Positions 1 to 14,375 of a stretch of DNA of 16,819 nucleotides are shown here, piece after piece (within the stretch, counting starts at the first letter, position 1; every line of letters starts with the position of its first letter). Source of the DNA: a virus. The position numbers and the translations under genes are program-made. Under the pieces are notes generated by a model. The model had not been told where the DNA came from and did not search any database. It worked only from the letters and a program-made list of their open reading frames with translations. The stretch is taken from the UHGV virus genome UHGV-0353285; one strand, given 5' to 3'.

Positions 1-2
1 TT

Positions 3-1574
3 ATGACTGCTCAGCAGTTGCTCGGGCCCGACGGTAAAACGCCACTACGCCGTTACGCGGGGTATAACGGCGGCGGTCCCGGCTTCGGTGGCCAGCTGAT
101 TGACTGGAATGCACCACAGCAAAGCGCCGATGCGGCACTGCTGCCTAATTTTTATCGCGGTAACGCGCGAGCAGACGATCTCGTTCGTAATAACGGCGTC
201 GCGTCGAACGCCGTGCAGCTGCATCAGGATCATATCGTCGGCAATCTGTTTAAGTTGAGTTATCGCCCTAACTGGCGTTACATCGGGATATCTCGCGAGG
301 ACGCCAGGGCGCTGGCGCGTGACGTTGAGGTCGCGTGGACTGAATACGCCGAGGACCCTCACTGCACGATTGATATCGAGCGGAAACGGACGTTCACAAT
401 GATGATTCGCGAAGGCGTGGCCACTCACGCGTTCAACGGTGAAACCTGCGTACAACCGGTGTGGGAGAGCTGCGCCGGCAGCGTTTTTCGGACGCGATTC
501 AAAATGGTCTCACCGAAACGAATTCGAAATCCTGGCTACGCAGCTGACACTCAATTTCGCCGCGCCGGTGTTGATATCGATAAAAACGGGGCCGCGGTTG
601 GGTACTGGATAGCCGAGGATACCTATCCCCTCGGCGGAGTTGGTAAATGCCGGCGCATACCAGCAAAACTCAGCAGCGGCAGACACGCATTCATTCACAT
701 ATTCGAGCCGCTCGAGGACGGACAAACCCGCGGAGATAACATTTTTTACAGCGTAATGGAGCGGCTGAAAATGCTCGATACGCTGCAGCAAACACAGCTG
801 CAGAGCGCCATCGTGAAGGCGATGTACGCCGCCACAATCGAATCAGAGCTCGACAGCCAGCAGGCGTTTGAATATATCGCCGGCGCGGGTACTGATATCG
901 ACTCGAACCCGCTGAGTTCGTTTATTCAGAGTTACGTGACGTACTACAACGGCGCAAATATCAAGCTCGGTGGTGTGAAAGTTCCCCACCTGCATCCCGG
1001 CGACAAACTCAGTTTACAGACCGCTCAGAATGCTGATGCTGGTTTCAGTTCGCTGGAAAAATCACTCCTGCGTTACGTTGCCGCTGGCGTCGGCGCGTCA
1101 TATGAGGAACTGAGTCGGGACTACAGCCAGGTCAGTTACTCCAGCGCGCGGGCCAGCGCAAACGTGAGCTGGCGTTTTTTCATGGGCCGTCGACGTTTTA
1201 TCGCCGCACGACAGGCGTCACTGATGTTCTGCTGCTGGTTTGAGGAAGCTCTGGCGCGCGGAGTTATCACCCTGCCACGCTCAGCGGTCCGGTCGTTTTA
1301 TGAAGCGCGGAACTCCTGGACGAACGCGCTCTGGATCGGCGCTGGTCGCATGGCGATTGATGGGCTGAAAGAGGTTCAGGAGAGCGCCATGCGCATCACG
1401 ACTGGCCTCAGCACGTATCAGAACGAACTCGCGCTGCAGGGGCAGGACTACGAGGAGGTCATGGAACAACAGGAATACGAAATTCAGCGCCGGCGCGAAA
1501 TGGGGCTGAGCGAACCATCCTGGTCAGTATCTCACCCCTCAAATACCAACGATAACGGCTGGGGAGGTAACTGA
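3..1574 (+). CDS. Portal protein (lambda gpB-like)
   Basis: 523-aa ORF. The N-terminus (LLGPDG...YAGYNGGGPGFGGQL...LLPNF.RGNARADDLVRNNG...QLHQDHIVG) and the whole-length profile match lambda portal protein B as I recall it; size is close to lambda B. ATG at 3 is at the window edge, so a few N-terminal codons may be missing. Confidence 0.9.
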   Translation: MTAQQLLGPDGKTPLRRYAGYNGGGPGFGGQLIDWNAPQQSADAALLPNFYRGNARADDLVRNNGVASNAVQLHQDHIVGNLFKLSYRPNWRYIGISREDARALARDVEVAWTEYAEDPHCTIDIERKRTFTMMIREGVATHAFNGETCVQPVWESCAGSVFRTRFKMVSPKRIRNPGYAADTQFRRAGVDIDKNGAAVGYWIAEDTYPLGGVGKCRRIPAKLSSGRHAFIHIFEPLEDGQTRGDNIFYSVMERLKMLDTLQQTQLQSAIVKAMYAATIESELDSQQAFEYIAGAGTDIDSNPLSSFIQSYVTYYNGANIKLGGVKVPHLHPGDKLSLQTAQNADAGFSSLEKSLLRYVAAGVGASYEELSRDYSQVSYSSARASANVSWRFFMGRRRFIAARQASLMFCCWFEEALARGVITLPRSAVRSFYEARNSWTNALWIGAGRMAIDGLKEVQESAMRITTGLSTYQNELALQGQDYEEVMEQQEYEIQRRREMGLSEPSWSVSHPSNTNDNGWGGN

Positions 1575-2884
1575 TGCCGTGGAACAATTTTCCGCACCTC
1601 GCCGCTAGGGCGTTCAATCAACCGCTTTTGCTGGAGCCCGCCTACGCGCGGGTATTTTTTTCTGCGCTGAGCGACCGGTTCGGTACCGGGCGACTGATTG
1701 ATACAGCGTCAGGAGAGGTAATGAACAGCGACGAAATGAACGCGCTCGCGATGGGGTGGGACAGCAGCGAGCGAACACGCCAGAAATCGTATCGCGTGGA
1801 GCGTGGTATAGCCGTTCTGCCGGTTACCGGGACGCTGGTTCATAAATTGGGTTATATCAATCCGGTCAGCGGGATGAGTGGTTACGACGGAATCGCAAAA
1901 CGCCTGCAGCAGGCGATTTCTGATCCCGATGTTAAGGGGATCCTGCTGGATATTGATTCCCCTGGCGGTGAGGTCGCCGGCGCGTTTGATACCGCTGATT
2001 TAATCGCCCGGGCGCGAGAGCAAAAACCGGTGTGGGCGCTGGCCAGCGATACGGCCTGCAGCGCCGCATATTTGCTGGCGTCAGCGTGTTCGCGCCGGCT
2101 GATAACGCAGACCGGCACGGTTGGTTCAATCGGTGTCCTGATGGCTCACCGCTGCGTCGAAAAGGCGCTGGAGATTGCCGGCGTTGACGTGACGCTGATT
2201 TACGCCGGCGCGCACAAAGTCGACGGGAACCCGTATTCCCAGCTGCCCGACGACGTTCGCGACGAATTCCAGCTGAGTATTAACAGCACACGCGAGCAGT
2301 TCGCGCAAAAAGTCTCGGATTATACCGGGCTGAAAAAATCCAGGGTGCTGGCCACAGAGGCCGCAGTATTTATCGGCGCGGACGCGATTAAATCTGGTCT
2401 CGCTGATCAACTCGTTAATTACGCGGACGCTATCGCAGTGATGGCCGACGCACTGAAACCAAAAACGGAGCGATTTATGCCAGGTACAACAGAAACCACG
2501 GCGGAGACCACGACCACAGAACAAACCGCGGCTACGACTACGGTCGCGCCGGTTGAGTCCAACGCGGAGCAGATTCGCGCGGACGCCGCATCGAGCGAAC
2601 TGGCACGCGTGATGGCCATCATCAACTGTCCCGAAGCTGTTGGGCGCGAGGCGCAGGCAAAAGCGCTCGCTGCCGTCCCCGGGATGACGGTCGGGCAGGC
2701 GCAGGCTGTCCTCGCGGCAGCACCGCAAACAGCGCAGGCGCGGACAGAAACGGCGCTCGATACACTCATGAGCACTGAATCACCGGAAACTATTCAGGAT
2801 GCCGGCAGCACCACGGCAACAGGAACAACCGCAAACGTCTCGATGCTGGTCGCGGCAGGGCGTTCAATTTTAGGGGATGAATAA
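1574..2884 (+). CDS. Head maturation protease / minor capsid protein C (S49 ClpP-like peptidase family)
   Basis: 436-aa ORF directly after the portal, with GGAGG Shine-Dalgarno upstream and ATG overlapping the portal stop. Lambda gpC-like blocks are present (GIAVLPV.GTL, GYDGI..RLQQA..DP.V.GILLDIDSPGG, KPVWALA, HKVDGNPYS.LPDDVR). The C-terminal third is Thr/Ala/Gln-rich, as in the scaffold portion of lambda C. Confidence 0.88.
   Translation: MPWNNFPHLAARAFNQPLLLEPAYARVFFSALSDRFGTGRLIDTASGEVMNSDEMNALAMGWDSSERTRQKSYRVERGIAVLPVTGTLVHKLGYINPVSGMSGYDGIAKRLQQAISDPDVKGILLDIDSPGGEVAGAFDTADLIARAREQKPVWALASDTACSAAYLLASACSRRLITQTGTVGSIGVLMAHRCVEKALEIAGVDVTLIYAGAHKVDGNPYSQLPDDVRDEFQLSINSTREQFAQKVSDYTGLKKSRVLATEAAVFIGADAIKSGLADQLVNYADAIAVMADALKPKTERFMPGTTETTAETTTTEQTAATTTVAPVESNAEQIRADAASSELARVMAIINCPEAVGREAQAKALAAVPGMTVGQAQAVLAAAPQTAQARTETALDTLMSTESPETIQDAGSTTATGTTANVSMLVAAGRSILGDE
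2477..2884 (+). CDS. Putative nested scaffolding protein (Nu3-like), from an in-frame internal start within the protease gene
   Basis: In lambda, Nu3 is translated in frame from the 3' third of gene C. Here in-frame ATGs at 2441 and 2477 would give ~135-147-aa products with the same C-terminus. This is an inference by analogy; no strong SD was seen. Confidence 0.4.
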   Translation: MPGTTETTAETTTTEQTAATTTVAPVESNAEQIRADAASSELARVMAIINCPEAVGREAQAKALAAVPGMTVGQAQAVLAAAPQTAQARTETALDTLMSTESPETIQDAGSTTATGTTANVSMLVAAGRSILGDE

Positions 2885-3213
2885 TGACCACAGAAACGTA
2901 TAGCCCGGATGATTTTATTCTGGGACCCGATCTTGTTGTGACGACCGTCGGTCATTTTCAGGGCGGGATCAACGTACCCCGGCTGACACCGATTATGCTC
3001 GACGCTACTGCCGGGACGTTTAAAGTCTGGGACGGCTCAATTGGTAAGGCGGTTGGTCTCACAGCCACAGCAGTTAATACAGGCTCCAGTTCTGCAGACT
3101 GCTCGTACTACAAATCAGGATCGTTTCGTTATACGGCGATTAACTGGGGTACGGTTACTGACGTCGCTAAACGCAAATCAGCGTTTGCTGGTACGCCAGT
3201 CAGCGTTGGCTGA
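2884..3213 (+). CDS. Head decoration protein (lambda gpD-like)
   Basis: 109-aa ORF between protease and major capsid genes. Motifs LTPIMLDAT...KVWDG...YYKSGSFRY...AFAGT resemble lambda gpD (110 aa). SD AGGGGA upstream; start overlaps the upstream stop (TAATG). Confidence 0.8.
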   Translation: MTTETYSPDDFILGPDLVVTTVGHFQGGINVPRLTPIMLDATAGTFKVWDGSIGKAVGLTATAVNTGSSSADCSYYKSGSFRYTAINWGTVTDVAKRKSAFAGTPVSVG

Positions 3214-3234
3214 TAGCAAAAAAAAACTCAAAAC

Positions 3235-3259
3235 AAGCCGCCTCCGGGCGGTTTTTTTA
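3235..3259 (+). terminator. Rho-independent terminator-like hairpin between decoration and major capsid genes
   Basis: Stem CCGCC (3238-3242), loop TCCG, stem GGCGG (3247-3251), followed by T7 (3252-3258) and preceded by an A-run (3218-3226). Likely partial or attenuating, since the capsid gene follows in the same operon. Confidence 0.55.
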
Positions 3260-3273
3260 TACAGGATATATAA

Positions 3274-4308
3274 ATGAGCGATTCGTTTACTACGTCAGAA
3301 CTGATTACCGCAACGCAGCAGGTATTTAAGTTCAATCCGTTGTTTTTAAAATTGTTTTTCCGTGAGACCTACACGTTTACGAGCGAAGAGGTTTTTCTGG
3401 ATAAAATCCCGGGCAAAGTCAATATGGCGGTATATTGCGCCCCGATGATCACCGGCAAAGTTGACCGCACTCGCGGCTATTCAACGAACCACTTTAAACC
3501 GGGTTACACGAAACCGAAACACACGATCAATCCGAATATGAGCATCAAGCGCGCCGCCGGTGAGCAAATTGGCCAGCCAGAAACGCCGGTCGAACGTCGT
3601 GCAAAAATCATCATGCAGAATTTGCTCGACGAGGAGCTCAGCATCAGCCAGCTCGAAGAGTTCCAGGCAGTGCAGGCGGTTCTGTACGGTAAATACACCG
3701 TTTCCGGCAGCAATATCGAGACCTATGAGATCGACATGAGCCGCAGCGCGACGAATAACGTCACTCAGTCCGGTTCGACCGCCTGGTCGACTCAGGACGC
3801 GGAAACGTATGACCCGAGCGACGATATTGAATCCTATGCAGACCTCGCCTCCGGTGCGGTTAACGTGATCATCATGGACGGTAAAGCCTGGAAGCAGCTT
3901 AAACGCTTTAAAAAATTCTGGACGGCACTGGATACGCGCCGCGGCTCAAACAGTCAGCTCGAAGTCGCGCTGAAAAACCTGGGCGATGTCGTTAGCTTTA
4001 AGGGCTATTACGGCGACACGGCGCTGTTCGTTTACAAGGGTCAATATATTGACCCGCTAATAGGCACTGAAACGCGTTATATGCCGGATAACACGATGAT
4101 CCTGGGCAACACAAAAAATCGCGGGCTCCGCACCTATGGCGCGATCCAGGACGAGGACGCGCTGAAAGAGGGTATCTGCGAAGCCACGCGCTATCCAAAA
4201 GTGTGGACGACGACCGGCGATCCGGCAGTGACGCAAACAATGACGCAATCCGCGCCAGCAATGGTCCTCACCGACGCTGATGCGTTCGTCGTCGTAAAAA
4301 TCGCGTAA
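3274..4308 (+). CDS. Major capsid protein (lambda gpE-like)
   Basis: 344-aa ORF. Strong resemblance to lambda E across the length (FKF.PLFL.LFFRE, PGYTKPKH, IIMQN..DEEL.I.Q.EE.QAV.AVL.GKYT, TYDP.DDIE.YA, DTRRGSNS.LE, RGLRTYG.IQD, RYPK.W.TTGDP). AGGA SD upstream. Confidence 0.92.
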   Translation: MSDSFTTSELITATQQVFKFNPLFLKLFFRETYTFTSEEVFLDKIPGKVNMAVYCAPMITGKVDRTRGYSTNHFKPGYTKPKHTINPNMSIKRAAGEQIGQPETPVERRAKIIMQNLLDEELSISQLEEFQAVQAVLYGKYTVSGSNIETYEIDMSRSATNNVTQSGSTAWSTQDAETYDPSDDIESYADLASGAVNVIIMDGKAWKQLKRFKKFWTALDTRRGSNSQLEVALKNLGDVVSFKGYYGDTALFVYKGQYIDPLIGTETRYMPDNTMILGNTKNRGLRTYGAIQDEDALKEGICEATRYPKVWTTTGDPAVTQTMTQSAPAMVLTDADAFVVVKIA

Positions 4309-4330
4309 GAGCCGAAGGCTCTTTTTTTTA
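4306..4330 (+). terminator. Rho-independent terminator-like hairpin after the major capsid gene
   Basis: Stem AGAGCC (4308-4313), loop GAA, stem GGCTCT (4317-4322), then a T-run (4322-4329). Overlaps the TAA stop of the capsid gene. Confidence 0.6.
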
Positions 4331-4340
4331 AGGAATTAAC

Positions 4341-4760
4341 ATGAGCACAAAAACAGAATTGCTGGCGCGCATTGACGATTTGAGCGCCCAGCTCGGTCGC
4401 GAATTACCGCGCAGCGGGACTATTGCTGAACTGGAATCAATCGTCGCCGGCGCTGAGTCAGAGCTCGATATTCTGAACGAGCAATCTGGTGACGCGGGAG
4501 GCATCGAGATCACGGTGAATGCTGCGCCCGGGACGGATAGCGATCTCGCTCAATCAATCGCGAGCGCTATCGTTTCACAGTCACAAGAACCGGAGCTCGC
4601 ACCGGCTACGCACCGCGTTAAGCTGCGAAACACGCTGGACGTTTATCACTACGTGAACGGGCGTCGCGTTCGCGAGATTGTTGCTGCTGGCCGGGAAATT
4701 GTTGTTGATTCACCGGAGGTTGCAGACCTCATCGCAGCTGATCACGTTTACGCGCTATGA
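4341..4760 (+). CDS. DNA packaging / head assembly protein, lambda FI-like
   Basis: 139-aa acidic ORF in the position of lambda FI. The N-terminus (MSTKTELLARIDDLSAQLGREL) resembles the start of lambda FI as I recall it. AAGGA SD upstream. Confidence 0.55.
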   Translation: MSTKTELLARIDDLSAQLGRELPRSGTIAELESIVAGAESELDILNEQSGDAGGIEITVNAAPGTDSDLAQSIASAIVSQSQEPELAPATHRVKLRNTLDVYHYVNGRRVREIVAAGREIVVDSPEVADLIAADHVYAL

Positions 4761-5137
4761 GCTACTACGATGACCTCCGGGCTGGCGACGAGGAGATGAT
4801 CCGTGAGTGGGGACGGCCCGTTAAATTACGCGGTAAAACCGACCCCATTATCGCTATTTTCAACGAGCCTTACGCGCGCGTTGACGTTCCTCACGCTGGT
4901 TTTATTACCGGTACAGTAACGAGCCTGACAGCGCTCTCAGACGACGTCGCTGGCGTTGTTGCGCGTGACGTTGTCCAGGTCCCAAAGCAGCGCAGTATCG
5001 CTGCTGACGGCTCTGTTACCTGGTCTGACTGGACCGATTACGTGGTTAAAGAGCCTCAACCGGATGGCATCGGTCTCACGAATATTTTTTTAGAGCCTCA
5101 CACGTCCAGCGAAAACAGCGAGTATTCAAAATACTAA
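4757..5137 (+). CDS. Putative head-tail joining (head completion) protein, FII-like by position
   Basis: 126-aa ORF with start overlapping the FI-like stop (ATGA). Assignment is by synteny with lambda FII and small size; sequence resemblance is not confidently recognised. Confidence 0.4.
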   Translation: MSYYDDLRAGDEEMIREWGRPVKLRGKTDPIIAIFNEPYARVDVPHAGFITGTVTSLTALSDDVAGVVARDVVQVPKQRSIAADGSVTWSDWTDYVVKEPQPDGIGLTNIFLEPHTSSENSEYSKY

Positions 5138-5157
5138 GTGGGACCGCGGTCCCACTT
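5136..5157. repeat. 22-bp perfect palindrome AAGTGGGACCG/CGGTCCCACTT
   Basis: Read directly: aagtgggaccgcggtcccactt, a perfect inverted repeat centred on a CCGCGG core. It overlaps the stop codon of the FII-like gene and has no downstream T-tract. Confidence 0.6.
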
Positions 5158-5168
5158 AAGGGGGAACC

Positions 5169-5849
5169 GTGGCCGATTTACGTAGTAACGCGCAGATGTT
5201 CGATATCGATGTTTCGGCGCTGGAGCAGCTCAGAGTCGAAATCAGCGCGACGCAACATCAGATGCTGATGGCATACAACAGAGCGCTGAACCGAACTGCA
5301 AAGTATATGCACCGAATTTCAGCAGGAATGATTTTGACTGCACTGGCAGCTAAAAATCATAAGGCCGTAAATAAACGAATCAAACCGTTCATTAAGCGCC
5401 GCAATTTTACAAAAGAAGGGGCAGGAGATCTGAGTAGCGTAAAACTCTGGTACGGCCTGAACGATTTCCGTGTATCTGAGCTAAAGGGGCGATTACAAAA
5501 TCCCAGGAAGCAGAAGCAGCCTCGCAATCCAGAGACCGGTCAATTTTTGAAAACAAAAAAAGGCGCTCGAGGGGCGGCTTTTACACCCAAAAGTGCAGGG
5601 CTGGCGATGATGAGTTGGCCAGATTCATTCGTAGCTAAGCGCTACGGTGCGAAAAGTGTCTGGATTCGGCTGGCTCGCGGAGGAATCGAAGAGGCTCGCG
5701 TACCTGTGCACGACGCGCTGGAGGATGCTATCGATGATTATATTTTTGAAAACATTGGCTCTGTTTTTATGGGCTTTTTTGAGAAAGATTTACGCGGTCG
5801 AGTGAAAGGTAATGTCCACGTAGACCCAAAAACAGGGAAACGATTATGA
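5169..5849 (+). CDS. Putative tail completion protein (lambda gpZ-like), basic
   Basis: 226-aa ORF with GTG start preceded by AGGGGGA. Lys/Arg-rich with loose resemblance to lambda gpZ and in the equivalent position after FII. The functional call is tentative. Confidence 0.4.
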   Translation: MADLRSNAQMFDIDVSALEQLRVEISATQHQMLMAYNRALNRTAKYMHRISAGMILTALAAKNHKAVNKRIKPFIKRRNFTKEGAGDLSSVKLWYGLNDFRVSELKGRLQNPRKQKQPRNPETGQFLKTKKGARGAAFTPKSAGLAMMSWPDSFVAKRYGAKSVWIRLARGGIEEARVPVHDALEDAIDDYIFENIGSVFMGFFEKDLRGRVKGNVHVDPKTGKRL

Positions 5850-6382
5850 GCGGGCTGGATGCATTTGACGAATATCTTGATCGCGTTAAAGGCGCGGTTT
5901 TACAAATACCGTTCATCAAAACATTCGGCATTTATCCAGAAATTCCGGCAGGATTTGAAACGCCAGCTCTGTTCCTGGAAATCAGCAACTGGTCACAGAG
6001 TGACGAAGCTGTTCCAGGCTCAATTCAGTCAGTCGAGCTGTCGTGTAATTTGTATTTGCTGCGTGAGTTTGCTGCAGATCAGTACGGACTGAAATCGCAG
6101 AATGCAGCGCTCTATATGACGAGCTGGATTGATGGGCGAATGTTCGGTCCCGGAACTAAACCGGCAAAATTCAGCGACGCGGAACCATGTGACTGGATTA
6201 AAAACGGGCAGTCAGTCGGTTCGCATTCAGTTCAGTGCGTGTCGTTCACGCAGGTTGTAGGCGTTGGTCCAGATATTTTCGATTATCCCTCACAGGGAAC
6301 CCTGAAAAATATATACGTCGGAATAGCGCCAGATATCGGCGCAGAACACGAGAGCGACTACTATGGCCCAATCGGACGATGA
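5846..6382 (+). CDS. Hypothetical virion morphogenesis protein (possible tail terminator/completion protein)
   Basis: 178-aa ORF with ATGA overlap to the upstream gene and AGGGA SD. It lies between head-completion genes and the baseplate genes. No confident family recognition. Confidence 0.3.
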   Translation: MSGLDAFDEYLDRVKGAVLQIPFIKTFGIYPEIPAGFETPALFLEISNWSQSDEAVPGSIQSVELSCNLYLLREFAADQYGLKSQNAALYMTSWIDGRMFGPGTKPAKFSDAEPCDWIKNGQSVGSHSVQCVSFTQVVGVGPDIFDYPSQGTLKNIYVGIAPDIGAEHESDYYGPIGR

Positions 6383-7265
6383 ATATGCTGCAGCGGAGAA
6401 CGCGCGCAGGCTGCGTGACGCAGTTAAACGAGGCACGATAGCTGCAGTTAAAATGAATCCTCCCCGCTGCCGAGTCTCATTTGGTGGCGAACACCAGTCA
6501 GGCTGGCTGCAGTGGTTTACTCACGCCACCTCAGAACGCGTCGACTGGAGCGCACCATCAGTGGGCGATCCCGTTACTGTTGTTTCTGAGGGTGGGGACA
6601 CGCGGAACGGCGTAGTTATGCTCGGGCTGCACATTGACAACAAAGCTCCGCCCAGTAATGACCCCCATGATCATGTCACTGCATACTGTGACGGGGCTAC
6701 GATGACGTATAACACAAAAAATCACACTCTGACATGGCAGGGCGTACCGGACGGCGTAGTAAAAATACTCGGTGAGTCTGAAATAGAAATATTCGGACGT
6801 GCAGACGTTACTATTAATAGCGAAAACGTTGTCAATATTCACGGTGGAAAATTAATTAACGCAGACGCTGACATTATTAATGTGACAGCAACAGACACAA
6901 TTAACGCACATGCTGATTTAGTGAACGTTATAGCAACGAGTTCTGTTAGTGTTACTGCTGCGAACAGAATATCGCTGACAGCTCAAACAATCAGTGCGTG
7001 GGCTCCGGGTGGGATAACACTAGCTGGTCCAACTCATATTACCGAGACATTAGTAGTAGATAAATTAGCGACATTCCGTAACGATATTTCTGTCACTGGA
7101 GATAACGGTGGAACAGGTAATATCACAACCCGCGGTAGTGTGTTAGCAGGGCAAGAGGTACGGGACCGACAAGGCACAATGAATGAGATGCGTATTACAT
7201 ATAACGGGCATACGCACATATGCCCTGACGGAGAAACAGAGAAACCAAATCAACCAATGGCGTAA
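6363..7265 (+). CDS. Baseplate central spike / assembly protein V (P2 gpV-like)
   Basis: 300-aa ORF. The N-terminal domain has the gpV-type signature (RCRV..GG...GWLQW..HA......W.APSVGD.V). The middle is a beta-helix-like repeat region (INADADIINVTATDTINAHADLVNVIATSSVSVTA). The C-terminus carries a His-rich apex (YNGHTHICPDG). Confidence 0.85.
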   Translation: MAQSDDEYAAAENARRLRDAVKRGTIAAVKMNPPRCRVSFGGEHQSGWLQWFTHATSERVDWSAPSVGDPVTVVSEGGDTRNGVVMLGLHIDNKAPPSNDPHDHVTAYCDGATMTYNTKNHTLTWQGVPDGVVKILGESEIEIFGRADVTINSENVVNIHGGKLINADADIINVTATDTINAHADLVNVIATSSVSVTAANRISLTAQTISAWAPGGITLAGPTHITETLVVDKLATFRNDISVTGDNGGTGNITTRGSVLAGQEVRDRQGTMNEMRITYNGHTHICPDGETEKPNQPMA

Positions 7266-7267
7266 AT

Positions 7268-7609
7268 ATGCTTGGAATGAACCGTGACACCGGTAAGCCT
7301 TTATCGGGGACTGATCACATTTGTCAGTCTATCGTTGATATTTTAACGACCCCGCTGGGAACCCGTGTAATGCTGCCGGAATATGGAAGCAAATTATTTG
7401 ACCTTGTTGATAATCCCACAGATCCATCGCTTGCTATGCGGATAATTATGGAAAGCGCTGGCGCAATAGCACGCTGGGAACCACGCGTCAGAATTGACAG
7501 AATAAATGTGTTAGCAGTGGATATCGGGAAAATAACAATATTAATTATCGCAACAGATATCGAAACACAACAGCGATTAGAGTTTAATAATATGGAGCTG
7601 ATATTTTGA
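7268..7609 (+). CDS. Baseplate wedge protein W (GPW/gp25 family)
   Basis: 113-aa ORF immediately after V. Motifs GMNR.TG, I.QSI.DIL.TP.G.RVM.P.YGS and WEPRV are typical of gpW/gp25 proteins. Confidence 0.85.
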   Translation: MLGMNRDTGKPLSGTDHICQSIVDILTTPLGTRVMLPEYGSKLFDLVDNPTDPSLAMRIIMESAGAIARWEPRVRIDRINVLAVDIGKITILIIATDIETQQRLEFNNMELIF

Positions 7610-8526
7610 TAACATCAACAGTTCAAAACTCGATAGTGAAAACTATTGATATGAGTCTGCTTCCGCCGCCAGCATTCGTTAAAACCCCGTTATTTTCAGA
7701 TGTTAAATCTAATCTACTGTCAGAGCTGCAGATATTATATCCACAATTTAACGCGCTCCTGGAGTCAGACCCAGCAGTTAAACTGCTGGAAATAGTTGCA
7801 TACAGAGAAATTATCATTACAGCCCGGGTAAATCAGGGGATGCTCGCTGTATTGCTCGCATTCGCAAAAAATAGCGATCTCGACCAGATTGGCGCTAATT
7901 TTGACTGCCTGCGGCTGTTGATAACGCCAGCTAATCCCGACTCAGTCCCCCCGACTGAAGCGGTTTACGAGAGTGACGACGAGTATCGTCATCGCATACA
8001 ACTATCATGGTACGCGCGGAATACTGCCGGCAGTACAAACGCGTATAACTATTTCGCGCTATCGAGTGATCCCGATGTTCTGTCAGCGCAGGCATACGGC
8101 CCGCCTGTGACTCAGCCAGGGTACGTCGATATGTACGTTTTGTCCCGGACAGGCGACGGTGTACCCCCGCAATCACTACTGAATACAGTGAATGCGGCCC
8201 TGTCTCCTGACGACACTCGGCCACTAACTGATTTCGTGACCGTAAAACCTGCGTCGAACCTGAATTACCGGGTTGAGGCCGTTATCGTAGCGGGGCTCGG
8301 TCCCGACCAGAACGTATTACTCAACGGCGCGCAGAGCGATCTTGAAGTCTACGTGACCACACAACATAAAATCGGGGCAACAGCAGCTCTGTCAGGAATT
8401 TACGACGCGATACATCGCGACGGCACTGAGCGTGTGATTCTGATATCACCGACAGAGGATGCGATCGCCGGCGTCGGACAGGCTCCACACTGCACAGAAA
8501 TCAAACTCAGCGTACAGATGGGGTGA
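7606..8526 (+). CDS. Baseplate protein J (P2 gpJ-like)
   Basis: 306-aa ORF following W with gpJ-like blocks (LLE..AYRE, IGAN...RL.ITPA, DDEYR.RIQ). The start is uncertain: TTG at 7606 overlapping the W stop, or ATG at 7651 (MSLLPPPAF). Confidence 0.85.
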   Translation: MITSTVQNSIVKTIDMSLLPPPAFVKTPLFSDVKSNLLSELQILYPQFNALLESDPAVKLLEIVAYREIIITARVNQGMLAVLLAFAKNSDLDQIGANFDCLRLLITPANPDSVPPTEAVYESDDEYRHRIQLSWYARNTAGSTNAYNYFALSSDPDVLSAQAYGPPVTQPGYVDMYVLSRTGDGVPPQSLLNTVNAALSPDDTRPLTDFVTVKPASNLNYRVEAVIVAGLGPDQNVLLNGAQSDLEVYVTTQHKIGATAALSGIYDAIHRDGTERVILISPTEDAIAGVGQAPHCTEIKLSVQMG

Positions 8527-9155
8527 CAATGACGAGCCAGAGTGTACTGCCTCCTAACGCAGTAACACCAGAAAGAGCGCTGGAAGCCGTTTTATCTCAT
8601 GTCGGCGATTTGCCTGGTGATATACGAATTATTAAAAATCCCGACCTGTGTCCCGCAAATTTGCTCCCATGGCTAGCGTGGGAATACGCGGTTACGTACT
8701 GGAATCCGGACTGGAGTGAGCGACAAAAACGCGAAATTATCAAAGCAGCCGCGTGGCAAAACAAACACCGCGGCACCCGTGGAGCTGTTGAACGCGCGTT
8801 ATTAACTGTCGGATTTAATAGCAAAATGCGCGAGTGGTTTGAAGCCACACCCAGGGACGACCCGTATACATTCGCAATTAAAATATATCTGCTAAAAAGT
8901 ATGGGGTTAGATTTAGAGCTATTGAATACATTTATTGCACAAATATTTGATGCAAAAAATTGTCGTTCATTATTAAAAGAAATAAATTTCGAAACTGGTG
9001 TTGATGGTGAGTTTTTTATAGCTGGTACACCTTACGCGAAAATAGGCGTAAATATACCGGCAGATGGTGATGGCGGCGTGAAATTAAATGGCGGATTATA
9101 TATATCAGGCTCACCAATTGTTAGTTTAAATGTGGAGATAGGGCCAAATGGCTGA
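8523..9155 (+). CDS. Baseplate/tail protein I (P2 gpI-like)
   Basis: 210-aa ORF with conserved N-terminal block (LLPWLAWEY.V..W...WSE..KR..I). Start is GTG at 8523 (overlapping the J stop) or ATG at 8529. The C-terminal third is markedly AT-rich. Confidence 0.82.
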   Translation: MTMTSQSVLPPNAVTPERALEAVLSHVGDLPGDIRIIKNPDLCPANLLPWLAWEYAVTYWNPDWSERQKREIIKAAAWQNKHRGTRGAVERALLTVGFNSKMREWFEATPRDDPYTFAIKIYLLKSMGLDLELLNTFIAQIFDAKNCRSLLKEINFETGVDGEFFIAGTPYAKIGVNIPADGDGGVKLNGGLYISGSPIVSLNVEIGPNG

Positions 9156-10065
9156 AAATAAAATTTACGCAGTACTGACAGACCGCGGCGCACAACTCGA
9201 AGCCGCTGCGCTGGCGTCAGGCGTGCCGGTGGTGCTGAACAAATTTGTTATCGGTGACGCGAACGGAAACGACGACGTAACACCGGATCCGGCGCGTACT
9301 GCATTAATTCACGAGACGTATCGCGGGGATATTAAATCGTCAGAAAATAGTGGTAACCAGGTTATCTTTACACTATACGTACCACCGGAAACCGGCGGCT
9401 ATACTATCCGTGAGGTGGGAATATTAACCGATAAAGGCGAACTGTACTCAGTTGCACGTTCACCGGATATTTTAAAACCTACGGACAGCAACGGCGCGCT
9501 GATTTCAATTACGTATAAATACACGCTCGCGGTGTCCAGCACGTCTACTGTTAACGTAGTTATTGATAACAGTAGTGGAATGAGTCAGGCCGATGCTGAT
9601 AAGCGATATTTGCAGATAAGAAAAAATTTATCTGAAATTAAAGACAAAGGCGCGGCGGCGCAAAAAACGGCACGGGAAAATATCGGCGTTAATCTTGATG
9701 ATTATTACACCAAAAAGGACGTAGACAATTTAATTGATGATAGCGATGACCTCGCACCGGTGGTGCCTGCGTTTGCAGCTGTCGGCTCAGTTGTTTATGC
9801 AGGATTTGGATTTAGTAACGAGACTGTTATGCACTATAAACCCGGGGATACTATTGCAGGTTCATTGATTTTTCCTGCGTATATATATAGAAAAAATGCG
9901 CAGTTAATTAGCGACGTTATTATTAGTATAGGATTTTCAGCAGAATCCCTGCCTGGCTTGTGGGCGCTCTCAGGGTATATGCCGTCGAGTTCCGAACCGA
10001 CAGACGGTAATGCCGAAGCTATTTTTACAGCGAGTTTTGCAACAAATTTCATTAGAGTAGCCTAA
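9148..10065 (+). CDS. Tail fibre protein (P2 gpH-like N-terminal baseplate-attachment domain, divergent C-terminus)
   Basis: 305-aa ORF with start overlapping the gpI stop. The N-terminal ~130 aa (KF.IGDANGNDD..PDP..TALIHE.YRG...S......V.FT...PPE.GGYTIREVGI.TDKGELY) resembles the conserved fibre N-terminus. The C-terminal half is AT-rich and unrecognised. Confidence 0.75.
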   Translation: MAENKIYAVLTDRGAQLEAAALASGVPVVLNKFVIGDANGNDDVTPDPARTALIHETYRGDIKSSENSGNQVIFTLYVPPETGGYTIREVGILTDKGELYSVARSPDILKPTDSNGALISITYKYTLAVSSTSTVNVVIDNSSGMSQADADKRYLQIRKNLSEIKDKGAAAQKTARENIGVNLDDYYTKKDVDNLIDDSDDLAPVVPAFAAVGSVVYAGFGFSNETVMHYKPGDTIAGSLIFPAYIYRKNAQLISDVIISIGFSAESLPGLWALSGYMPSSSEPTDGNAEAIFTASFATNFIRVA

Positions 10066-10070
10066 ATAAA

Positions 10071-10304
10071 ATGTTTAAAGATGATGATTTTTCAAATATA
10101 AAATTACCGCGCTATTCTAGCACATCAGGCAATAGTATTGATGTTAAATGTGATATCAGAGGTATCGGTAGTGATATTTTATTTACTGCATCTAAAACCG
10201 ATTCCACATTATATGGAAGGAATTTATACGAGCGAGCTTTGGCCGGTGAATTTGGTGATGTCGCTGAATATGTGGCTCCAATTATAATCGAATCAGGAGA
10301 GTAA
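10071..10304 (+). CDS. Hypothetical small protein (possible tail fibre assembly chaperone or accessory gene)
   Basis: 77-aa AT-rich ORF in the slot where P2-like tails carry the fibre assembly gene. No clear SD and no recognisable family. Confidence 0.3.
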   Translation: MFKDDDFSNIKLPRYSSTSGNSIDVKCDIRGIGSDILFTASKTDSTLYGRNLYERALAGEFGDVAEYVAPIIIESGE

Positions 10305-10309
10305 AAGAA

Positions 10310-10651
10310 ATGAGCACTAATTTTTTACATGGGCCTCGCACGCTCGAATACGACGACGGCACAAAAGAGATCAACACAGTCGATATTTCAGTTATCGGGA
10401 TTGTTGGTACTGCACCGGATGTTGGGCTAGGGGAGAGGGCATCATTAACGTGGGGATCACCGCTGGCAAATAATGTAGTCACCTTTTTCCCGGTCTATTA
10501 TGGGGATTACGGAAATAAATTTGCAGTTGAAATTATTAAGAAGGGTATTTCTGGAATTAAATACGGATATAGCACACTTCCAGACGGAACAATAAAATTA
10601 ACGCTCGGGACCGACAGCACAACAAGCCGGAACGGCTGGCGCAAGACGTAG
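10310..10651 (+). CDS. Small ORF carrying a tail sheath N-terminal motif (sheath 5' fragment or split sheath N-terminal part)
   Basis: 113-aa ORF with strong SD (AGGAGA, 10292-10297). The first ~37 residues (MSTNFLHGPRTLEYDDGTKEINTVDISVIGIVGTAPD) match the conserved N-terminal strand of contractile sheath proteins. The stop TAG (10649-10651) overlaps the GTG of the downstream sheath ORF. Confidence 0.5.
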   Translation: MSTNFLHGPRTLEYDDGTKEINTVDISVIGIVGTAPDVGLGERASLTWGSPLANNVVTFFPVYYGDYGNKFAVEIIKKGISGIKYGYSTLPDGTIKLTLGTDSTTSRNGWRKT

Positions 10652-11802
10652 TGACTCACGGTGAAGGGCGAACCGCTGAGGATTGTATTTGTGTAGGCAT
10701 TGACGAGGACAGTAAAAATGACGGAATTGTTTATCAGATGCCCGTCACGAGCCTGACGGGCGGTTCTGACGCTCCATTTCCAGTCAACATACCCACACTA
10801 ATTGCAGGTAGTCAGAAAAAAGCGGCGCTCCTGGGTGCAGCAGGCACTCTCCCCGCAGCCATCACTGATATTTTAAATCAGACAGATGCGCTAATTGTTG
10901 TTGTTCGCGTAGACGAAAACACAGACGCGACAAAAGAGCGTGAGAACGTAATCAACGGAATTAACGTTTTGTTAACATCGGGACAAATAAACCAGGTGAC
11001 TCCACGAATTTTGATTGCACCTGATTACAGCGCTAATGACGACGTCGCTGCCGCGCTGGAGGTAGTCACAAATAAATTACGTGGAGTCGGCTATATTGAT
11101 TCTCCACGCACGGCATCGCCCGCAGACGTCGTTAACCGCCGCCATAAATATAGCGCGCGCATGGAAATACTACGCCCGCGTGTGTTTTCCACGGGCGATC
11201 TCAGTGATCTGTCGCGTCCATATTCAGCTATCGCCGCTGGTTTACGAGCCAGAATTGACAACGAAAAAGGGTTTTGGTGGAGCAAATCTAATCAAAATAT
11301 TTATGGAATAACAGGGCTTGAGCAGGTTGATGATTTCATTATTGGCGAGACAAACTGCACGGCGAACCTGCTGAACGCTAGTCAGGTAAGCACCATCATT
11401 CGCTATGATGGATTCCGACATTGGGGTAACTATCTGTGCAGCCTGGATCCGCAGTGGTCGTTTGAATGCGTTCGTCGGACAGCTGACGTAATTGAAGATT
11501 CTATAGCCCGGGCAATGATGACAGATTTTATTGATCGCCCGATAGACCTGCATCTCGGAACAGACGTTGTCGAGTCGATAAACGCATATCTGCACAAATT
11601 AGAGGAGCAGGGTGCGATTAACGGAGGGCGTGCGTGGTTAGACGGTGAGTTGAATACAAAAGAAAGTCTGGCCGCTGGTAATCTTTATATTAATGTTGAT
11701 TTTGGTCCGAAATCTCCGGCACAAACAATTACGTTAATGTACCGCATTAATAATGACTATACAGTTGAAGCGCTGGCCTCCCTTTTTAAAGAAACAGCCT
11801 GA
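10651..11802 (+). CDS. Tail sheath protein (P2 FI-like)
   Basis: 383-aa ORF with sheath-like blocks throughout (FPVNIPTLI.GSQKKAA, ALIVVVRVDE, PRILIAPDYS, LRARID.EKGFWWS.SNQ.I.GITG, C.ANLLNA..V.TIIRYDGFR.WGN, LYINVDFGP). GTG start with weak SD; the frame is open upstream only back to 10573. Confidence 0.88.
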   Translation: MTHGEGRTAEDCICVGIDEDSKNDGIVYQMPVTSLTGGSDAPFPVNIPTLIAGSQKKAALLGAAGTLPAAITDILNQTDALIVVVRVDENTDATKERENVINGINVLLTSGQINQVTPRILIAPDYSANDDVAAALEVVTNKLRGVGYIDSPRTASPADVVNRRHKYSARMEILRPRVFSTGDLSDLSRPYSAIAAGLRARIDNEKGFWWSKSNQNIYGITGLEQVDDFIIGETNCTANLLNASQVSTIIRYDGFRHWGNYLCSLDPQWSFECVRRTADVIEDSIARAMMTDFIDRPIDLHLGTDVVESINAYLHKLEEQGAINGGRAWLDGELNTKESLAAGNLYINVDFGPKSPAQTITLMYRINNDYTVEALASLFKETA

Positions 11803-11819: not shown

Positions 11820-12332
11820 ATGTCAGATAGCAACGCTTACCGCGCGTTTGCGCTATTCGTGCAGGGTGAACGGGTTTTAAATTGTACTGAATATACTCCA
11901 GTCGATATGAAAATAATCGAAGACGAGTTTAAAACAGGCGCGATGGATACAGCCATCACCTTGGATGGTGGTATGGAGAAAATGTCAGCAAGTTTTAAAG
12001 TTTCAGGTTCTGATTCTGGTGTTATGAGCTATTTCGGGTTAATACCGGGAGTCAAGACGCGGTTTGAAATTCGTAGTGCGTACACAGACTCATATGGAAT
12101 AAATTTTGAGCGTATTGATACCTACGAGGGACTTATTACAGCAATCACTGATGACGCTCAGGGGACTGATTCAAAATCGTCAGTGGGGCAATCAGTAACG
12201 ATTGCGCCGAGCTATTATAAACGAGTTCAAAACGGACGAATTATTTACGAAATTCATCCTGCAAAAATGAAGCGCGTTATTAACGGTGTTGATGTTCTTG
12301 CGGGCGTCGCTCGAATCCTTCATGTATATTAA
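11820..12332 (+). CDS. Tail tube protein (P2 FII-like)
   Basis: 170-aa ORF directly after the sheath with GGAGAG SD. Size and motifs (GGMEKMSASFKVSG, SYYKR, INGVD.LAG) fit the tail tube family. Confidence 0.85.
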   Translation: MSDSNAYRAFALFVQGERVLNCTEYTPVDMKIIEDEFKTGAMDTAITLDGGMEKMSASFKVSGSDSGVMSYFGLIPGVKTRFEIRSAYTDSYGINFERIDTYEGLITAITDDAQGTDSKSSVGQSVTIAPSYYKRVQNGRIIYEIHPAKMKRVINGVDVLAGVARILHVY

Positions 12333-12344
12333 AAGGCAAATAAA

Positions 12345-12626
12345 ATGGAATCATTATTAGACAGTATGACTATTACGCTCTCTCGCCCGTTTATTATTAA
12401 AGGCGAGAGCTGCGATACAATTACTATTCGCGAACCAAAATTACGCGATCGTATTATGTTCAGTAACGATAAAAGTGGTCTTGAAGAGCGGACAGCGACA
12501 ATGCTGGCACGCTTGGCAAATCTGGAGCGAGAGGATTTATATGCACTGCCTGCGTGCGATTACGATCAAATGGAGGCCGCGTTTAACGAACTGGTAAAGC
12601 CCCCGAAAGACCGACATCAGATATAG
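12345..12626 (+). CDS. Tail assembly chaperone E (P2 gpE-like)
   Basis: 93-aa ORF between the tube and tape measure genes, the conserved position of the tail chaperone. The N-terminus (ITLSRPFIIKGE..DTITIREPKLRD) resembles gpE-family proteins. Confidence 0.75.
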   Translation: MESLLDSMTITLSRPFIIKGESCDTITIREPKLRDRIMFSNDKSGLEERTATMLARLANLEREDLYALPACDYDQMEAAFNELVKPPKDRHQI

Positions 12627-12757
12627 TTATTCTGATTCCGTTTATTGCGAAAAAACTTGCTATCCCGCCCGATACGCAAATGGACCTGCCGTATCGGGTT
12701 TTTAATTTCTATGTAAACGAGGTCATGAAAACCGATGGCTATTTCTCAAAACTTTAA
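12345..12757 (+). CDS. Putative E' (E+E') product made by -1 ribosomal frameshift near the 3' end of E
   Basis: The -1 frame is open from 12485 to a TAA at 12755-12757 and would extend E by ~50 aa (…PFIAKKLAIPPDTQMDLPYRVFNFYVNEVMKTDGYFSKL), ending 23 nt inside the tape measure gene. No canonical X_XXY_YYZ heptamer; nearest candidates are GGTAAAG (12593-12599) and the C5 run 12600-12604. Confidence 0.45.
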
Positions 12758-14375
12758 AACGCAGGTTGTATTTGGGGGGCGAATAGACCCGTCGTTTCGG
12801 CGCGGTACAACAGAACTCAACGACGCCATTCGGCAGACGTCGTCTACTGTCGGAAAATTAACGAAAAGCCAGGATAAATTAAAAGACAAAATCGCAGCAA
12901 TGAAACTGGCGGGTAAAGACGTTTCTGATTTATCTGCTCAGTATCAAAAGCTGGACCGTCGGATAAAAGCGACAACACAGGACCAGGAAGCTCTGAATAC
13001 TCAGCTCGCCAAAAAACAGCGGCTGGAGAATTGGACGGGGCGCGCAAAAGGGGCTGCAAAATGGGGAGGGCGAGCCGCCGCAGGTGCGGTGAGGGCCACG
13101 GGACGGGGTATCAAATGGGGGACGCTAGGGGCTGTGGGGCTGCTCGGCGGCGCGGCTGCTGGCGCGCTGGCAATGAATGCAGAGACGTCAGAAAAGCTCG
13201 GTCTGGCGAAGTCCTACGGTGTTGGCATCGAAAAATACGCTGCGTGGGAAAATATTGGTAAAGCTGCAGGGCTGAATGGCGAAAACGTAGGAGATCTGTC
13301 GGAGGAGTTGACTAATAAAATCGGGGAGGTTGGAAACGAAAAAAACCTGAATCCCATGTTGTTTCAAATTGGCCTGACAAAAAAACGGATGGCTAAATGG
13401 GATCGAGAAAAACAGTTCAATGAAGTTATGCGGCGTATCTCTGAAATGAAGGATGATCAACAGGCGGCGAGTCTGGCTGATCAGCTCATGGGGGGAGAGG
13501 CTAATAAAATAATGACCTATATGCGGGCGACTGGTAAAAGCTGGGAGCAGACTATGTCGGACGCTCAAAAATCGAACCTGCTAACGAAAGAAGGGGCTGA
13601 GGGGGCAGCGCGCGCGCACGTATCCGTCACGAATCTATGGGGGGCAATTACATCGGGGTTGGCAGATACGCTCGGTAAAATCGGGGGGGAACTCGCGCCG
13701 ACGTTTGACGCTATGCGAGACGAGCTGGCATCCTGGTTTAAAGAGAATCAAGGGGGGGTTGTTGATAGTATTAAAGAATGGGTTAAGCCAGAAAATATGA
13801 AAAAAATGTGGGAGGGGATAGTCAGTTTTGGCGAGGCGTGCGTTAAATTCGGAAAAATAATTTGGGCAGTAGCAAAAAAACTTGAGTGGTTAATACCGGA
13901 CGAGAAAACAGACGAGGAACAGCGCGTATATAACGAAGAATATAATAAAGCGTATCAGGAATTCATGGATAGTGGTGGTAAATATTCACCGAACCCAGGA
14001 CTGGCAGCAGATAATGTAGCAAAAGCAAAGGCCGACGAAGCCGTAGATAATATGCGACACCCTGAACGTCTTGCTCGTGCAAAATCACAGGCTGAATCAA
14101 TGCTCTCGTTTGCTAACCCGTTTACTGGATTAATAAATAAAGACTCAACGCCTGAATCACAAAACTCAGCAACCTTGAATATTGACGCGCTGAGACAGGC
14201 AGTCGCAACTCCAGCGCCAGAGCAAAACAATAAAATTGAAATCAATATTATCGGAGCGGCAGATCCACAATCAACACAGCAGGCTGCTGCATCGGGTGTG
14301 CTCGACGGGTTGAGACAAGTTGCGAGTTCGTATAATCGTGGCGCGATGTTTGATAAACCAGCGGCGGCGGGGTGA
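12735..14375 (+). CDS. Tail tape measure protein
   Basis: 546-aa ORF downstream of the chaperone with GAGG SD. It has a coiled-coil-like N-terminus, a Gly/Ala-rich hydrophobic segment (GTLGAVGLLGGAAAGALAM) and a long alpha-helical, low-complexity body. Confidence 0.8.
   Translation: MAISQNFKTQVVFGGRIDPSFRRGTTELNDAIRQTSSTVGKLTKSQDKLKDKIAAMKLAGKDVSDLSAQYQKLDRRIKATTQDQEALNTQLAKKQRLENWTGRAKGAAKWGGRAAAGAVRATGRGIKWGTLGAVGLLGGAAAGALAMNAETSEKLGLAKSYGVGIEKYAAWENIGKAAGLNGENVGDLSEELTNKIGEVGNEKNLNPMLFQIGLTKKRMAKWDREKQFNEVMRRISEMKDDQQAASLADQLMGGEANKIMTYMRATGKSWEQTMSDAQKSNLLTKEGAEGAARAHVSVTNLWGAITSGLADTLGKIGGELAPTFDAMRDELASWFKENQGGVVDSIKEWVKPENMKKMWEGIVSFGEACVKFGKIIWAVAKKLEWLIPDEKTDEEQRVYNEEYNKAYQEFMDSGGKYSPNPGLAADNVAKAKADEAVDNMRHPERLARAKSQAESMLSFANPFTGLINKDSTPESQNSATLNIDALRQAVATPAPEQNNKIEINIIGAADPQSTQQAAASGVLDGLRQVASSYNRGAMFDKPAAAG

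Follow-up and report, generated by a model that had tools for sequence, protein, structure and literature searches.

The window analysed here, the whole stretch of 16,819 nucleotides of the virus genome UHGV-0353285, is very probably the late structural operon of a temperate Escherichia coli myovirus prophage, which belongs to an old and widespread lineage carrying a lambda-type head (terminase A, W, B, C/Nu3, D, E, FI and FII) on a P2/R-pyocin-type tail. A first-pass annotation had described a siphovirus-type head combined with a myovirus-type tail in one element, and had taken the combination to be recent; the pairing is borne out, but the recency is not. The join exists, but it is old and was known before, and the element is not a fresh hybrid. 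That phages exchange head and tail genes as modules is textbook knowledge, and the present case matters little beyond annotation; the gain lies in a finer mapping of the joint within a known architecture. In addition, names can now be given to two genes usually labelled 'hypothetical', one for a tail completion protein, probably of the gpZ type, the other for a tail terminator of the PA0615 type.

The Lambda-Type Head Module

The head genes occupy positions 3-5137 and, as had been proposed, follow the lambda order B, C/Nu3, D, E, FI and FII, as identified with Pfam and PHROG:

3-1574, + strand, portal protein of the lambda gpB family (PF05136, E = 4e-90; phrog_21; 63% amino acid identity to lambda B)
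1574-2884, + strand, S49 head protease with C-terminal scaffold, lambda C/Nu3 type (PF01343, E = 3e-38; phrog_53)
2884-3213, + strand, gpD-family head decoration protein (PF02924; phrog_49)
3274-4308, + strand, major capsid protein of the lambda gpE family (PF03864, E = 8e-59)
4341-4760, + strand, FI, DNA-packaging chaperone (PF14000; phrog_92)
4757-5137, + strand, FII-type head closure protein or stopper, Hc1 (PF05354; phrog_82)

The last five of these lie above the Pfam cut-offs. The protease is 55% identical to lambda C, and the scaffold family phrog_8399 matches on its residues 307-407. Four near-identical records aside, lambda E is the top capsid match among sequenced phages, with 57% identity. 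For FII, tblastn finds no match to lambda FII, and the link is made through Pfam only. Terminase and gpW sit upstream in the relative L001, an element integrated adjoining yecA, in which Q, lysis genes and terminase make up a full lambdoid set; the window itself contains no replication or lysogeny genes.

The Two Genes between Head and Tail

Two genes follow FII, which the first-pass annotation had called the least recognisable of the window and had regarded as linkers of head and tail. Both can be recognised, and both are genes of the tail module:

5169-5849, + strand, probable tail completion protein, lambda gpZ family (Ne1/TCP) (phrog_27, E = 2e-42)
5846-6382, + strand, tail terminator or collar, homologue of R2-pyocin PA0615 (family profile against PDB 6u5f_A)

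The family profile of the first, a protein of 226 aa, aligns with lambda Z in hhalign (E = 3e-5, 150 columns, probability 72%), and 36 of the 86 aligned family members match PF06763 (Minor_tail_Z), the window protein itself falling under the Pfam threshold. In its AF2 model (pLDDT 85), a beta domain is flanked by one long helix at the N-terminus and another at the C-terminus. Lambda-type completion proteins have been described as a pair of long helices into which a beta domain is inserted (bioRxiv 10.1101/2024.12.10.627806), and the agreement of the two architectures supports membership of the gpZ family.

The second protein, of 178 aa, was identified only through a PDB sequence search and a fold search. 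Its family profile matches 'Collar PA0615' (6u5f_A) over the full length (E = 9e-17), while lambda U, P2 R and P2 S, compared with this profile directly, gave no match; for both seam families, the hhalign probability against P2 R and S stayed below 2%. Structure prediction, which had been suggested for the two genes, gave different outcomes. The AF2 model of 5846-6382 (pLDDT 85) has a terminator fold, with the pyocin collar 6u5f as the first Foldseek match (E = 2e-7), followed by the Mu terminator 9khy (7e-6), with lambda gpU (3e-4) and T4 gp15 among the further matches, and the gene is placed directly upstream of the tail genes. The model of 5169-5849, in contrast, has no matching solved fold in the PDB, and against BFVD it finds unnamed matches and weak HK97-gp10-like ones only.

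The Contractile Tail Module

From 6363 onward the genes are, by Pfam and PHROG, those of a contractile tail of the P2/R-pyocin type, as previously noted, the contractile nature being read from the genes:

6363-7265, + strand, central spike gpV, with an OB-fold domain to about 6755, a long beta-helix and an apex with an HxH motif (PF04717)
7268-7609, + strand, gpW baseplate wedge (wedge block gpW/gpJ/gpI: PF04965, PF04865, PF09684)
7606-8526, + strand, gpJ baseplate wedge (match to R2-pyocin chain PA0618, E = 4e-58)
8523-9155, + strand, gpI baseplate wedge (Pfam matches of the same wedge block)
9148-10065, + strand, tail fibre of 305 aa (PF12571 on the N-terminal part)
9148-10304, + strand, variable cassette made up of the fibre and a small low-GC open reading frame of 77 aa (DNA identity to relatives 40-60% from about 9600)
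10310-11802, + strand, tail sheath, split into two open reading frames, each matching phrog_23
11820-12332, + strand, tube (tube-to-gpD block: PF04985, PF10109, PF06995, PF05489, PF05954)
12345-12626, + strand, chaperone E (-1 frame open to about 12757, from reading the sequence)
12735-14375, + strand, tape measure (phrog_3654)
14372-14800, + strand, gpU (within the tube-to-gpD Pfam block)
14962-15186, + strand, gpX (within the same block)
15190-16233, + strand, tail gpD (same block; PF05954 weak, under cut-off)

The P2 genes expected from gpV onward are present, but their order is not, as had been stated, exactly that of P2, since the window has U-X-D and the X gene of P2 adjoins L. No slippery heptamer for an E/E' frameshift was identified, the only finding being that the -1 frame stays open. 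The sheath gene has a 1-nt deletion near 10625, where one C is missing in the alignment with the intact 497-aa gene of L001; the intact form matches the pyocin sheath PA0622 (E = 2e-50). With this frameshift, the present copy may not make particles at all.

The frameshifted sheath, together with the genes from the collar on, which run in step with PA0615, PA0618 and PA0622 of the R2 pyocin, would suit a reading as two adjacent elements, namely a headless R-type tailocin cluster next to the decayed head region of a lambda-like prophage. We find this hardly credible, as the genes form one dense same-strand array whose stops and starts overlap across the joint, a gpZ-type completion protein and an FII stopper would serve no purpose in a particle without a head, myoviruses that form plaques or were induced have the same array, and the lambdoid set of L001 is complete. 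The contiguity of the head genes with the tail led to the rejection of the tailocin reading.

Position of the Module Joint

The first-pass annotation had looked for the joint between 4341 and 7265, with the tail-type order beginning at gpV. The joint does lie within this interval, not at gpV but at the 3' end of FII:

~5050-5080, no strand, module joint of head cassette and tail module (start of Salmonella homology and GC change point)

Two Salmonella relatives, L011 and L012, have the same tail (56-86% amino acid identity) after an unrelated head cassette with a ClpP-capsid fusion, and in blastn the DNA homology to L011 starts at 5057. When FII is compared with its counterpart in the Salmonella relative that has the alternative head, identity is 20% over residues 1-97 and 66% over residues 98-126. 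The strongest compositional change point of the whole window, at 5080, falls in the same place: GC drops from 0.557 to 0.469, and the log-likelihood gain is 55, whereas none of 1000 shuffles exceeds 11. The last ~29 codons of FII (about 5048-5137) are inherited together with the tail module.

In lambda, the beta-hairpin and the C-terminal loop of gpFII touch gpU (PMC10721106). As the joint is inside FII, ~29 codons upstream of its stop, the tail-contacting C-terminus of FII would be inherited with its terminator. We tentatively propose, at somewhat less than even confidence, that the last ~29 residues act as a portable docking peptide, co-evolving and inherited with the PA0615-type terminator, and that the conserved 3' end of FII is a preferred site for swapping whole head cassettes onto one tail; the head types found before this tail are the lambda S49, D and E type and the ClpP-capsid fusion type. 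If true, this would give the lineage a defined, testable rule of head-tail compatibility. The mapped joint could help to engineer chimeric phages or tailocins with compatible necks.

Age and Linkage of the Architecture

The order Nu1-A-W-B-C-D-E-FI-FII-Z-collar-V-W-J-I-H-sheath-tube-E-T-U-X-D is also found in the Vibrio myovirus Valp1 and in Aeromonas phiARM81ld, and a contiguous A-to-D order occurs in four further relatives (L009, L037, L038 and L039). Of 5,426 E. coli genomes, 443 have the head segment and 443 the tail segment at a coverage of at least 80%, and 444 have the whole window; the element occurs in about 8-9% of complete E. coli genomes. In three enterobacterial relatives, the amino acid identities of the portal (91/88/79%), capsid (83/76/67%), gpJ (86/80/71%) and tube (78/67/64%) fall in step, which indicates that head and tail diverge in parallel. 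Among species-representative genomes, a scan based on an alignment of close collar homologues returned one locus, in Escherichia whittamii, with about 90% DNA identity. In IMG/VR, the collar stands directly before V and J in all 23 loci carrying a collar homologue, with Z before the collar in 21 and FII before Z in 17 of them, that is, in every contig reaching upstream; the peptide pattern used is biased to the Jilinvirus-like branch, and hence the scan allows no inference on the frequency of either head type.

These data bear directly on the claim of the first-pass annotation that the element is a recent mosaic of lambda and P2 with two novel neck proteins as the bridge. The nearest capsid genes among sequenced phages are those of lambda-group siphoviruses and the GC step between head and tail is sharp, as such a mosaic would have it, yet we regard it as very improbable. 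Identity is only 40-63% to lambda and 26-41% to P2, the arrangement is conserved in Vibrio and Aeromonas myoviruses and in the metagenomic loci, with both 'neck' genes included, and these genes are ordinary gpZ and terminator homologues. Moreover, it has already been published that HAP1-like viruses share with P2 only the V and F tail operons (PMC2771037). A literature search found no publication pairing 'lambda-like head' with 'P2-like tail'. The order shared with Valp1 and phiARM81ld, the parallel divergence and the 443 genomes largely point to an established single lineage in place of a recent mosaic. That its heads always carry this tail is nevertheless too strong a statement, as the nearest head among sequenced phages is that of lambda (57%) and the Salmonella branch has the tail with another head.

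Several observations count against the old-lineage explanation that we prefer, among them the missing tblastn match of FII to lambda FII, the gpZ homologue under the Pfam threshold and with no solved structure matching its model, and the sheath frameshift. In addition, the nearest capsid among sequenced phages, the four near-identical records aside, is lambda's and not a myovirus's, and third-position GC (GC3) is 0.62 in the head and 0.44 in the tail of the window, a difference of 0.18, while six relatives differ by 0.06 or less.

The GC3 gap is a hint that some module was replaced in this E. coli branch. The architecture may be old and this element's head and tail may still come from two different members of the family, joined by recombination in the conserved FII 3' end, the tail then coming from a lower-GC background. 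We consider this rather doubtful, and it would add to the main explanation without excluding it. The coincidence of the 5080 change point with the joint mapped in Salmonella is in keeping with such a recombinant, as is the GC3 gap itself. The E. coli relatives L009 and L010 have 67-84% DNA identity over 5200-6400, with flanks mostly at 90-96%, and this local drop indicates that the region does recombine. Against this, no candidate donor carrying a close low-GC relative of the tail came to light, the two modules are strictly linked across E. coli genomes and diverge in parallel from those of relatives, and the GC of the tail is patchy, not uniformly low.

Compositional Change within gpV

Within gpV, a switch from a GC-rich N-terminal part to an AT-rich part from ~6700 had been noted, and it is significant, yet the main compositional break of the window is the one at 5080. 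GC and GC3 are 0.57 and 0.54 over 6363-6698 and 0.44 and 0.35 over 6699-7265, and the optimal change point, 6756, is reached in only 1 of 1000 codon shuffles. It lies just past the OB fold, where the similarity to P2 gpV (3qr8, residues 12-132, E = 3e-17) and to 4s37 (residues 8-147, E = 1e-13) stops. Since GC3 falls too, amino acid composition alone is an insufficient explanation, and the Salmonella gpV orthologue is without the drop (GC3 0.69 and 0.68). All this would accord with a spike-tip domain, beta-helix and apex, swapped in from a low-GC phage. Such a swap is nonetheless unlikely: over three gpV segments, the identity to Salmonella orthologues is even (66/71/62% and 69/64/63%), and E. 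coli relatives are 96-97% identical along the entire gene. The low-GC tract, moreover, continues across gpW and reaches about 7800, early in gpJ; the drop is therefore not limited to the spike tip. Comparable patches occur in gpI, the tube and the tape measure gene, the gpV drop being one of many in the tail. This evenness of protein identity over the domains was the reason for setting the domain swap aside.

A Proposed Assembly of the Neck

In the old lambda-head, P2/R-pyocin-tail lineage that we favour, the gpW adaptor and a hexameric FII-type stopper would seal the filled head. The tail, assembled on its own, would have as its cap a hexamer of the PA0615-type terminator (5846-6382), ending both tube and sheath, and the gpZ-type completion protein (5169-5849) would sit on the tail, probably within the neck lumen. 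By analogy with lambda gpFII on gpU, the FII ring may then dock onto the terminator ring.

Comparison with Known Systems

The same element is found in Escherichia phages vB_EcoM-705R4, 720R5, 569R10 and 783R5 (ON470624 and others) and in the prophage of E. coli TUM13936 adjoining yecA, with the same genes and order and 92-96% DNA identity over 93-96% of the window. The window differs from them in another C-terminal cassette of the tail fibre and in the 1-nt sheath deletion; in vB_EcoM-705R4, the N-terminal part of the sheath is only 67% identical to that of the window.

Telomere myoviruses of the Hapunavirus type (Valp1, VP882 and Halomonas PhiHAP-1) and phiARM81ld have the identical structural order from small terminase to gpD, including FI, FII and the gpZ and collar homologues, with a protein identity of only 25-58%. 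Valp1 is reported to be a myovirus whose tail is contractile (PMC11054321). These phages are linear plasmid prophages with a protelomerase, whereas the E. coli element (L001) is chromosomal, with lambdoid Q and lysis genes.

In Jilinvirus/Iiscvirinae (Escherichia phage ECO1230-10), Citrobacter phage Chris1 and P0004-type Salmonella prophages, FII-Z-collar-V-W-J-I and the sheath and tube genes are shared with the window, the tail module of the Salmonella prophages being 56-86% identical, but the head has a ClpP-capsid fusion and a cement protein in place of S49, D, E and FI.

With lambda, the window shares the head genes B, C, D and E (40-63% identity, same order), FI and FII at the Pfam level, a probable gpZ family match and the gpU fold of the terminator. 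The lambda tail genes V, G, T, H, M, L, K, I and J gave no match in tblastn; the terminator of the window is of the sheath-capping pyocin type, and its tail is contractile by gene content.

P2 has homologues of V-W-J-I-H and of sheath-tube-E-T-U-D (26-41% amino acid identity), while its head genes Q, P, O, N, M and L are absent from the window and its gene X is placed elsewhere. The P2 neck consists of portal, gpL and gpR (bioRxiv 10.64898/2026.09.14.750843).

The collar PA0615, the gpJ-like PA0618 and the sheath PA0622 of the R2 pyocin (PA0615-PA0628) are the top solved-structure sequence matches, their locus tags in step with the collar, gpJ and sheath of the window. The window has the gene order of R-type pyocins, in which a PA0615-type collar precedes V-W-J-I-H-(chaperone)-sheath-tube-E-T-U-X-D. 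The R2 pyocin presumably also has X between U and D, as in the window. It is without head genes, FII and a gpZ homologue, whereas the window has a complete contiguous head module, which makes the element a phage and not a tailocin. The R-pyocin gene set, collar included, is collinear with the tail module of this lambda-headed lineage, and that of P2 is not.

Genomic Context and Gene Content

The window represents a known and common prophage type with a real module boundary. Among 5,426 complete genomes of E. coli, it has matches in 489, with at least 80% of its length covered in 444. Four GenBank records named "Escherichia phage vB_EcoM" are 92% identical to it, and a prophage adjoining yecA in E. 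coli TUM13936, which carries lambdoid Q, lysis genes, terminase and gpW upstream of the operon, reaches up to 96% identity. Every long ORF lies on the plus strand in a single packed array, and Pfam and PHROG assignments confirm the gene map of the first-pass annotation, namely a lambda-family head set followed by a contractile-tail set from 6363.

Features of the head and tail sets, all assigned by Pfam and PHROG
3–1574, +, portal, lambda-family head set
1574–2884, +, S49 protease with C-terminal scaffold
2884–3213, +, gpD decoration protein
3274–4308, +, gpE capsid protein
4341–4760, +, FI
4757–5137, +, FII, head closure protein
6363 onward, +, contractile-tail set: gpV, gpW, gpJ, gpI and tail fibre
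further along, +, contractile-tail set: sheath, tube, chaperone E, tape measure, gpU, gpX and gpD

Short matches (34–44 nt, 93–100% identity) to 3500–3543, 4772–4805 and 7173–7207 occur in several hundred E. coli genomes, O157:H7 strains among them, at sites that are annotated as CRISPR or unannotated; they look like CRISPR spacers targeting this prophage family. One of the four phage records, vB_EcoM-705R4, is reportedly mentioned in a study of CRISPR spacers in E. coli (PMC12736100).

The Two Genes at the Head–Tail Junction

The two ORFs between FII and gpV had been regarded as neck linkers and the least recognisable genes present; both appear to be ordinary tail-end components rather than novel linkers, of putative gpZ type and of PA0615 type, respectively. 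ORF 5169–5849 (226 aa) matches PHROG 27, "tail completion or Neck1", and its family profile aligns with lambda gpZ over 150 columns (E = 3e-5). The Pfam family Minor_tail_Z is passed by 36 of its 86 aligned relatives, the window copy falling below threshold. Its AlphaFold model (pLDDT 85), in which a beta domain lies between long helices on the N- and C-terminal sides, has no match among solved structures, and agrees with how lambda-type tail completion proteins have been described (bioRxiv 10.1101/2024.12.10.627806).

The sole PHROG match of ORF 5846–6382 (178 aa) is unnamed. Its family profile, however, matches the "Collar PA0615" of pyocin R2 (PDB 6u5f chain A) over the full length (E = 9e-17), and the fold nearest to its model (pLDDT 85) is that same collar, followed by the phage Mu terminator, the monocin cap, lambda gpU and T4 gp15. 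Because sequence and predicted fold both lead to collars and terminators, this ORF is identified as the tail terminator. The neck genes seem to exist as several alleles circulating in E. coli: two E. coli relatives (L009 and L010) share only 85% (gpZ) and 75% (collar) amino acid identity with the window, though their other DNA is mostly 90–96% identical, and the E. whittamii collar is 98% identical to the window's.

Position of the Joint

Salmonella prophages found through their collar homologue (P0004) possess a tail module, spanning the gpZ homologue to the tape measure, with 56–86% identity to that of the window, and in front of it an unrelated head cassette with a ClpP-capsid fusion, a cement protein and a portal of 23% identity. 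DNA homology between these prophages and the window begins at 5057. Within FII, residues 1–97 are 20% identical and residues 98–126 are 66% identical. As an independent line, the strongest single GC change point in the whole window lies at 5080 (GC 0.557 to 0.469; gain 55, where none of 1000 codon shuffles exceeded 11). On these three grounds, the joint is assigned to the 3′ end of FII rather than to gpV; this placement and the names of the two seam genes are what the present analysis adds. In lambda, a beta-hairpin and the C-terminal loop of gpFII touch the gpU terminator ring (PMC10721106). By analogy with this contact, the FII C-terminus, inherited with the tail module, would be the terminator-docking segment.

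Recombination between family members at the FII joint may have produced the E. coli branch itself, a reading that we consider possible but somewhat doubtful. It is suggested by the GC3 contrast in the window (head 0.62, tail 0.44), as against a head–tail difference of 0.06 or less in each of six relatives, and by the DNA identity to L009 and L010, which falls to 67–84% over 5200–6400 between the more conserved flanks (mostly 90–96%).

Composition within gpV

The GC switch reported inside gpV is real, with a change point at 6756 that was reached by 1 of 1000 shuffles (GC3 0.54 to 0.35). It follows directly on the OB-fold domain, at the point where resemblance to P2 gpV (3qr8) and 4s37 ceases. 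A Salmonella orthologue of the same length shows no such drop (GC3 0.69 and 0.68), and its identity to the window protein is even over three segments (66, 71 and 62%), while E. coli relatives are 96–97% identical along the entire gene. The low-GC tract extends beyond gpV via gpW into gpJ, and gpI and the genes for tube and tape measure have comparable patches. A domain swap is considered unlikely, and the drop is read as one of many compositional patches in the tail module. The C-terminus (7190–7262) ends in the spike sequence YNGHTHICPDG with an HxH motif, similar to ...LHTHKHPGD... at the equivalent position of P2 gpV; in P2, this motif forms the spike's iron-binding apex.

Age of the Head and Tail Combination

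A recent mosaic, or fresh siphovirus–myovirus hybrid, is contradicted by several observations. The full gene order, beginning at the small terminase and continuing through the head genes to FI-FII-gpZ homologue-collar homologue-V-W-J-I-H-sheath-tube-E-T-U-X-D, also occurs in Vibrio phage Valp1, reported to be a contractile-tailed myovirus (PMC11054321), and in Aeromonas phiARM81ld, at 25–58% protein identity. Head and tail diverge in parallel in three enterobacterial relatives retaining the lambda-type head (portal 91, 88 and 79%; capsid 83, 76 and 67%; gpJ 86, 80 and 71%; tube 78, 67 and 64%). The head segment (1–5040) is covered to at least 80% in 443 E. coli genomes, and so is the tail segment (5170–9150), likewise in 443. 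In addition, a peptide-pattern scan of IMG/VR, biased toward the Jilinvirus-like branch, gave the order collar-V-J in 23 of 23 loci with a collar homologue, and in every case where the contig extends far enough, Z lies upstream of the collar (21 loci) and FII upstream of Z (17 loci). Thus, the single lineage that the first-pass annotation had named as the alternative largely holds, but "always" carrying this tail is too strong, as the nearest capsid among sequenced phages, with the four near-identical records set aside, is lambda's (57%).

Variable and Accessory Features

Within the sheath gene (10310–11802), one C is missing near 10625 (ACAACAA^GCCGG), giving ORFs of 113 and 383 aa; the deletion was called against the intact 497-aa gene of TUM13936, from which just two other positions differ, and points either to a sequencing error or to a prophage that is defective. 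DNA identity to most relatives is 40–70% over 9600–10304, which covers the C-terminal third of the tail fibre and a 77-aa ORF behind it (GC 0.35 in the ORF), and a similar 77-aa ORF is present in L009; the pattern is a typical case of receptor-binding cassette exchange. Between gpU and gpX, the low-GC gap holds a 44-aa ORF (14808–14942, minus strand) whose C-terminal half is hydrophobic. An annotated 44-aa gene lies at the matching place in 705R4, and since L010 carries an Imm_superinfect family gene there, the gap suggests a moron or superinfection-immunity slot. The last ORF (16400–16819; 139 aa), which has no Pfam match, is kept at the yecA-side end of the TUM13936 prophage and of L002, is absent in L009 and L010, and may be a cargo gene.

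Comparison with P2 and R-Type Pyocins

Downstream of chaperone E (12599–12757), the -1 frame is free of stops for some 50 codons and closes just past the tape-measure start at 12735, an arrangement shared with P2 E/E′; a classical slippery heptamer was not identified there, just CCCCCG. Gene order departs from that of P2, in which X adjoins L, whereas the window has U-X-D. According to Lavigne et al., HAP1-like viruses have just the V and F tail operons in common with P2 (PMC2771037). With R2 pyocin, the best sequence-matching chains have locus tags collinear with the window genes, PA0615 matching the 178-aa protein, PA0618 gpJ and PA0622 the sheath.
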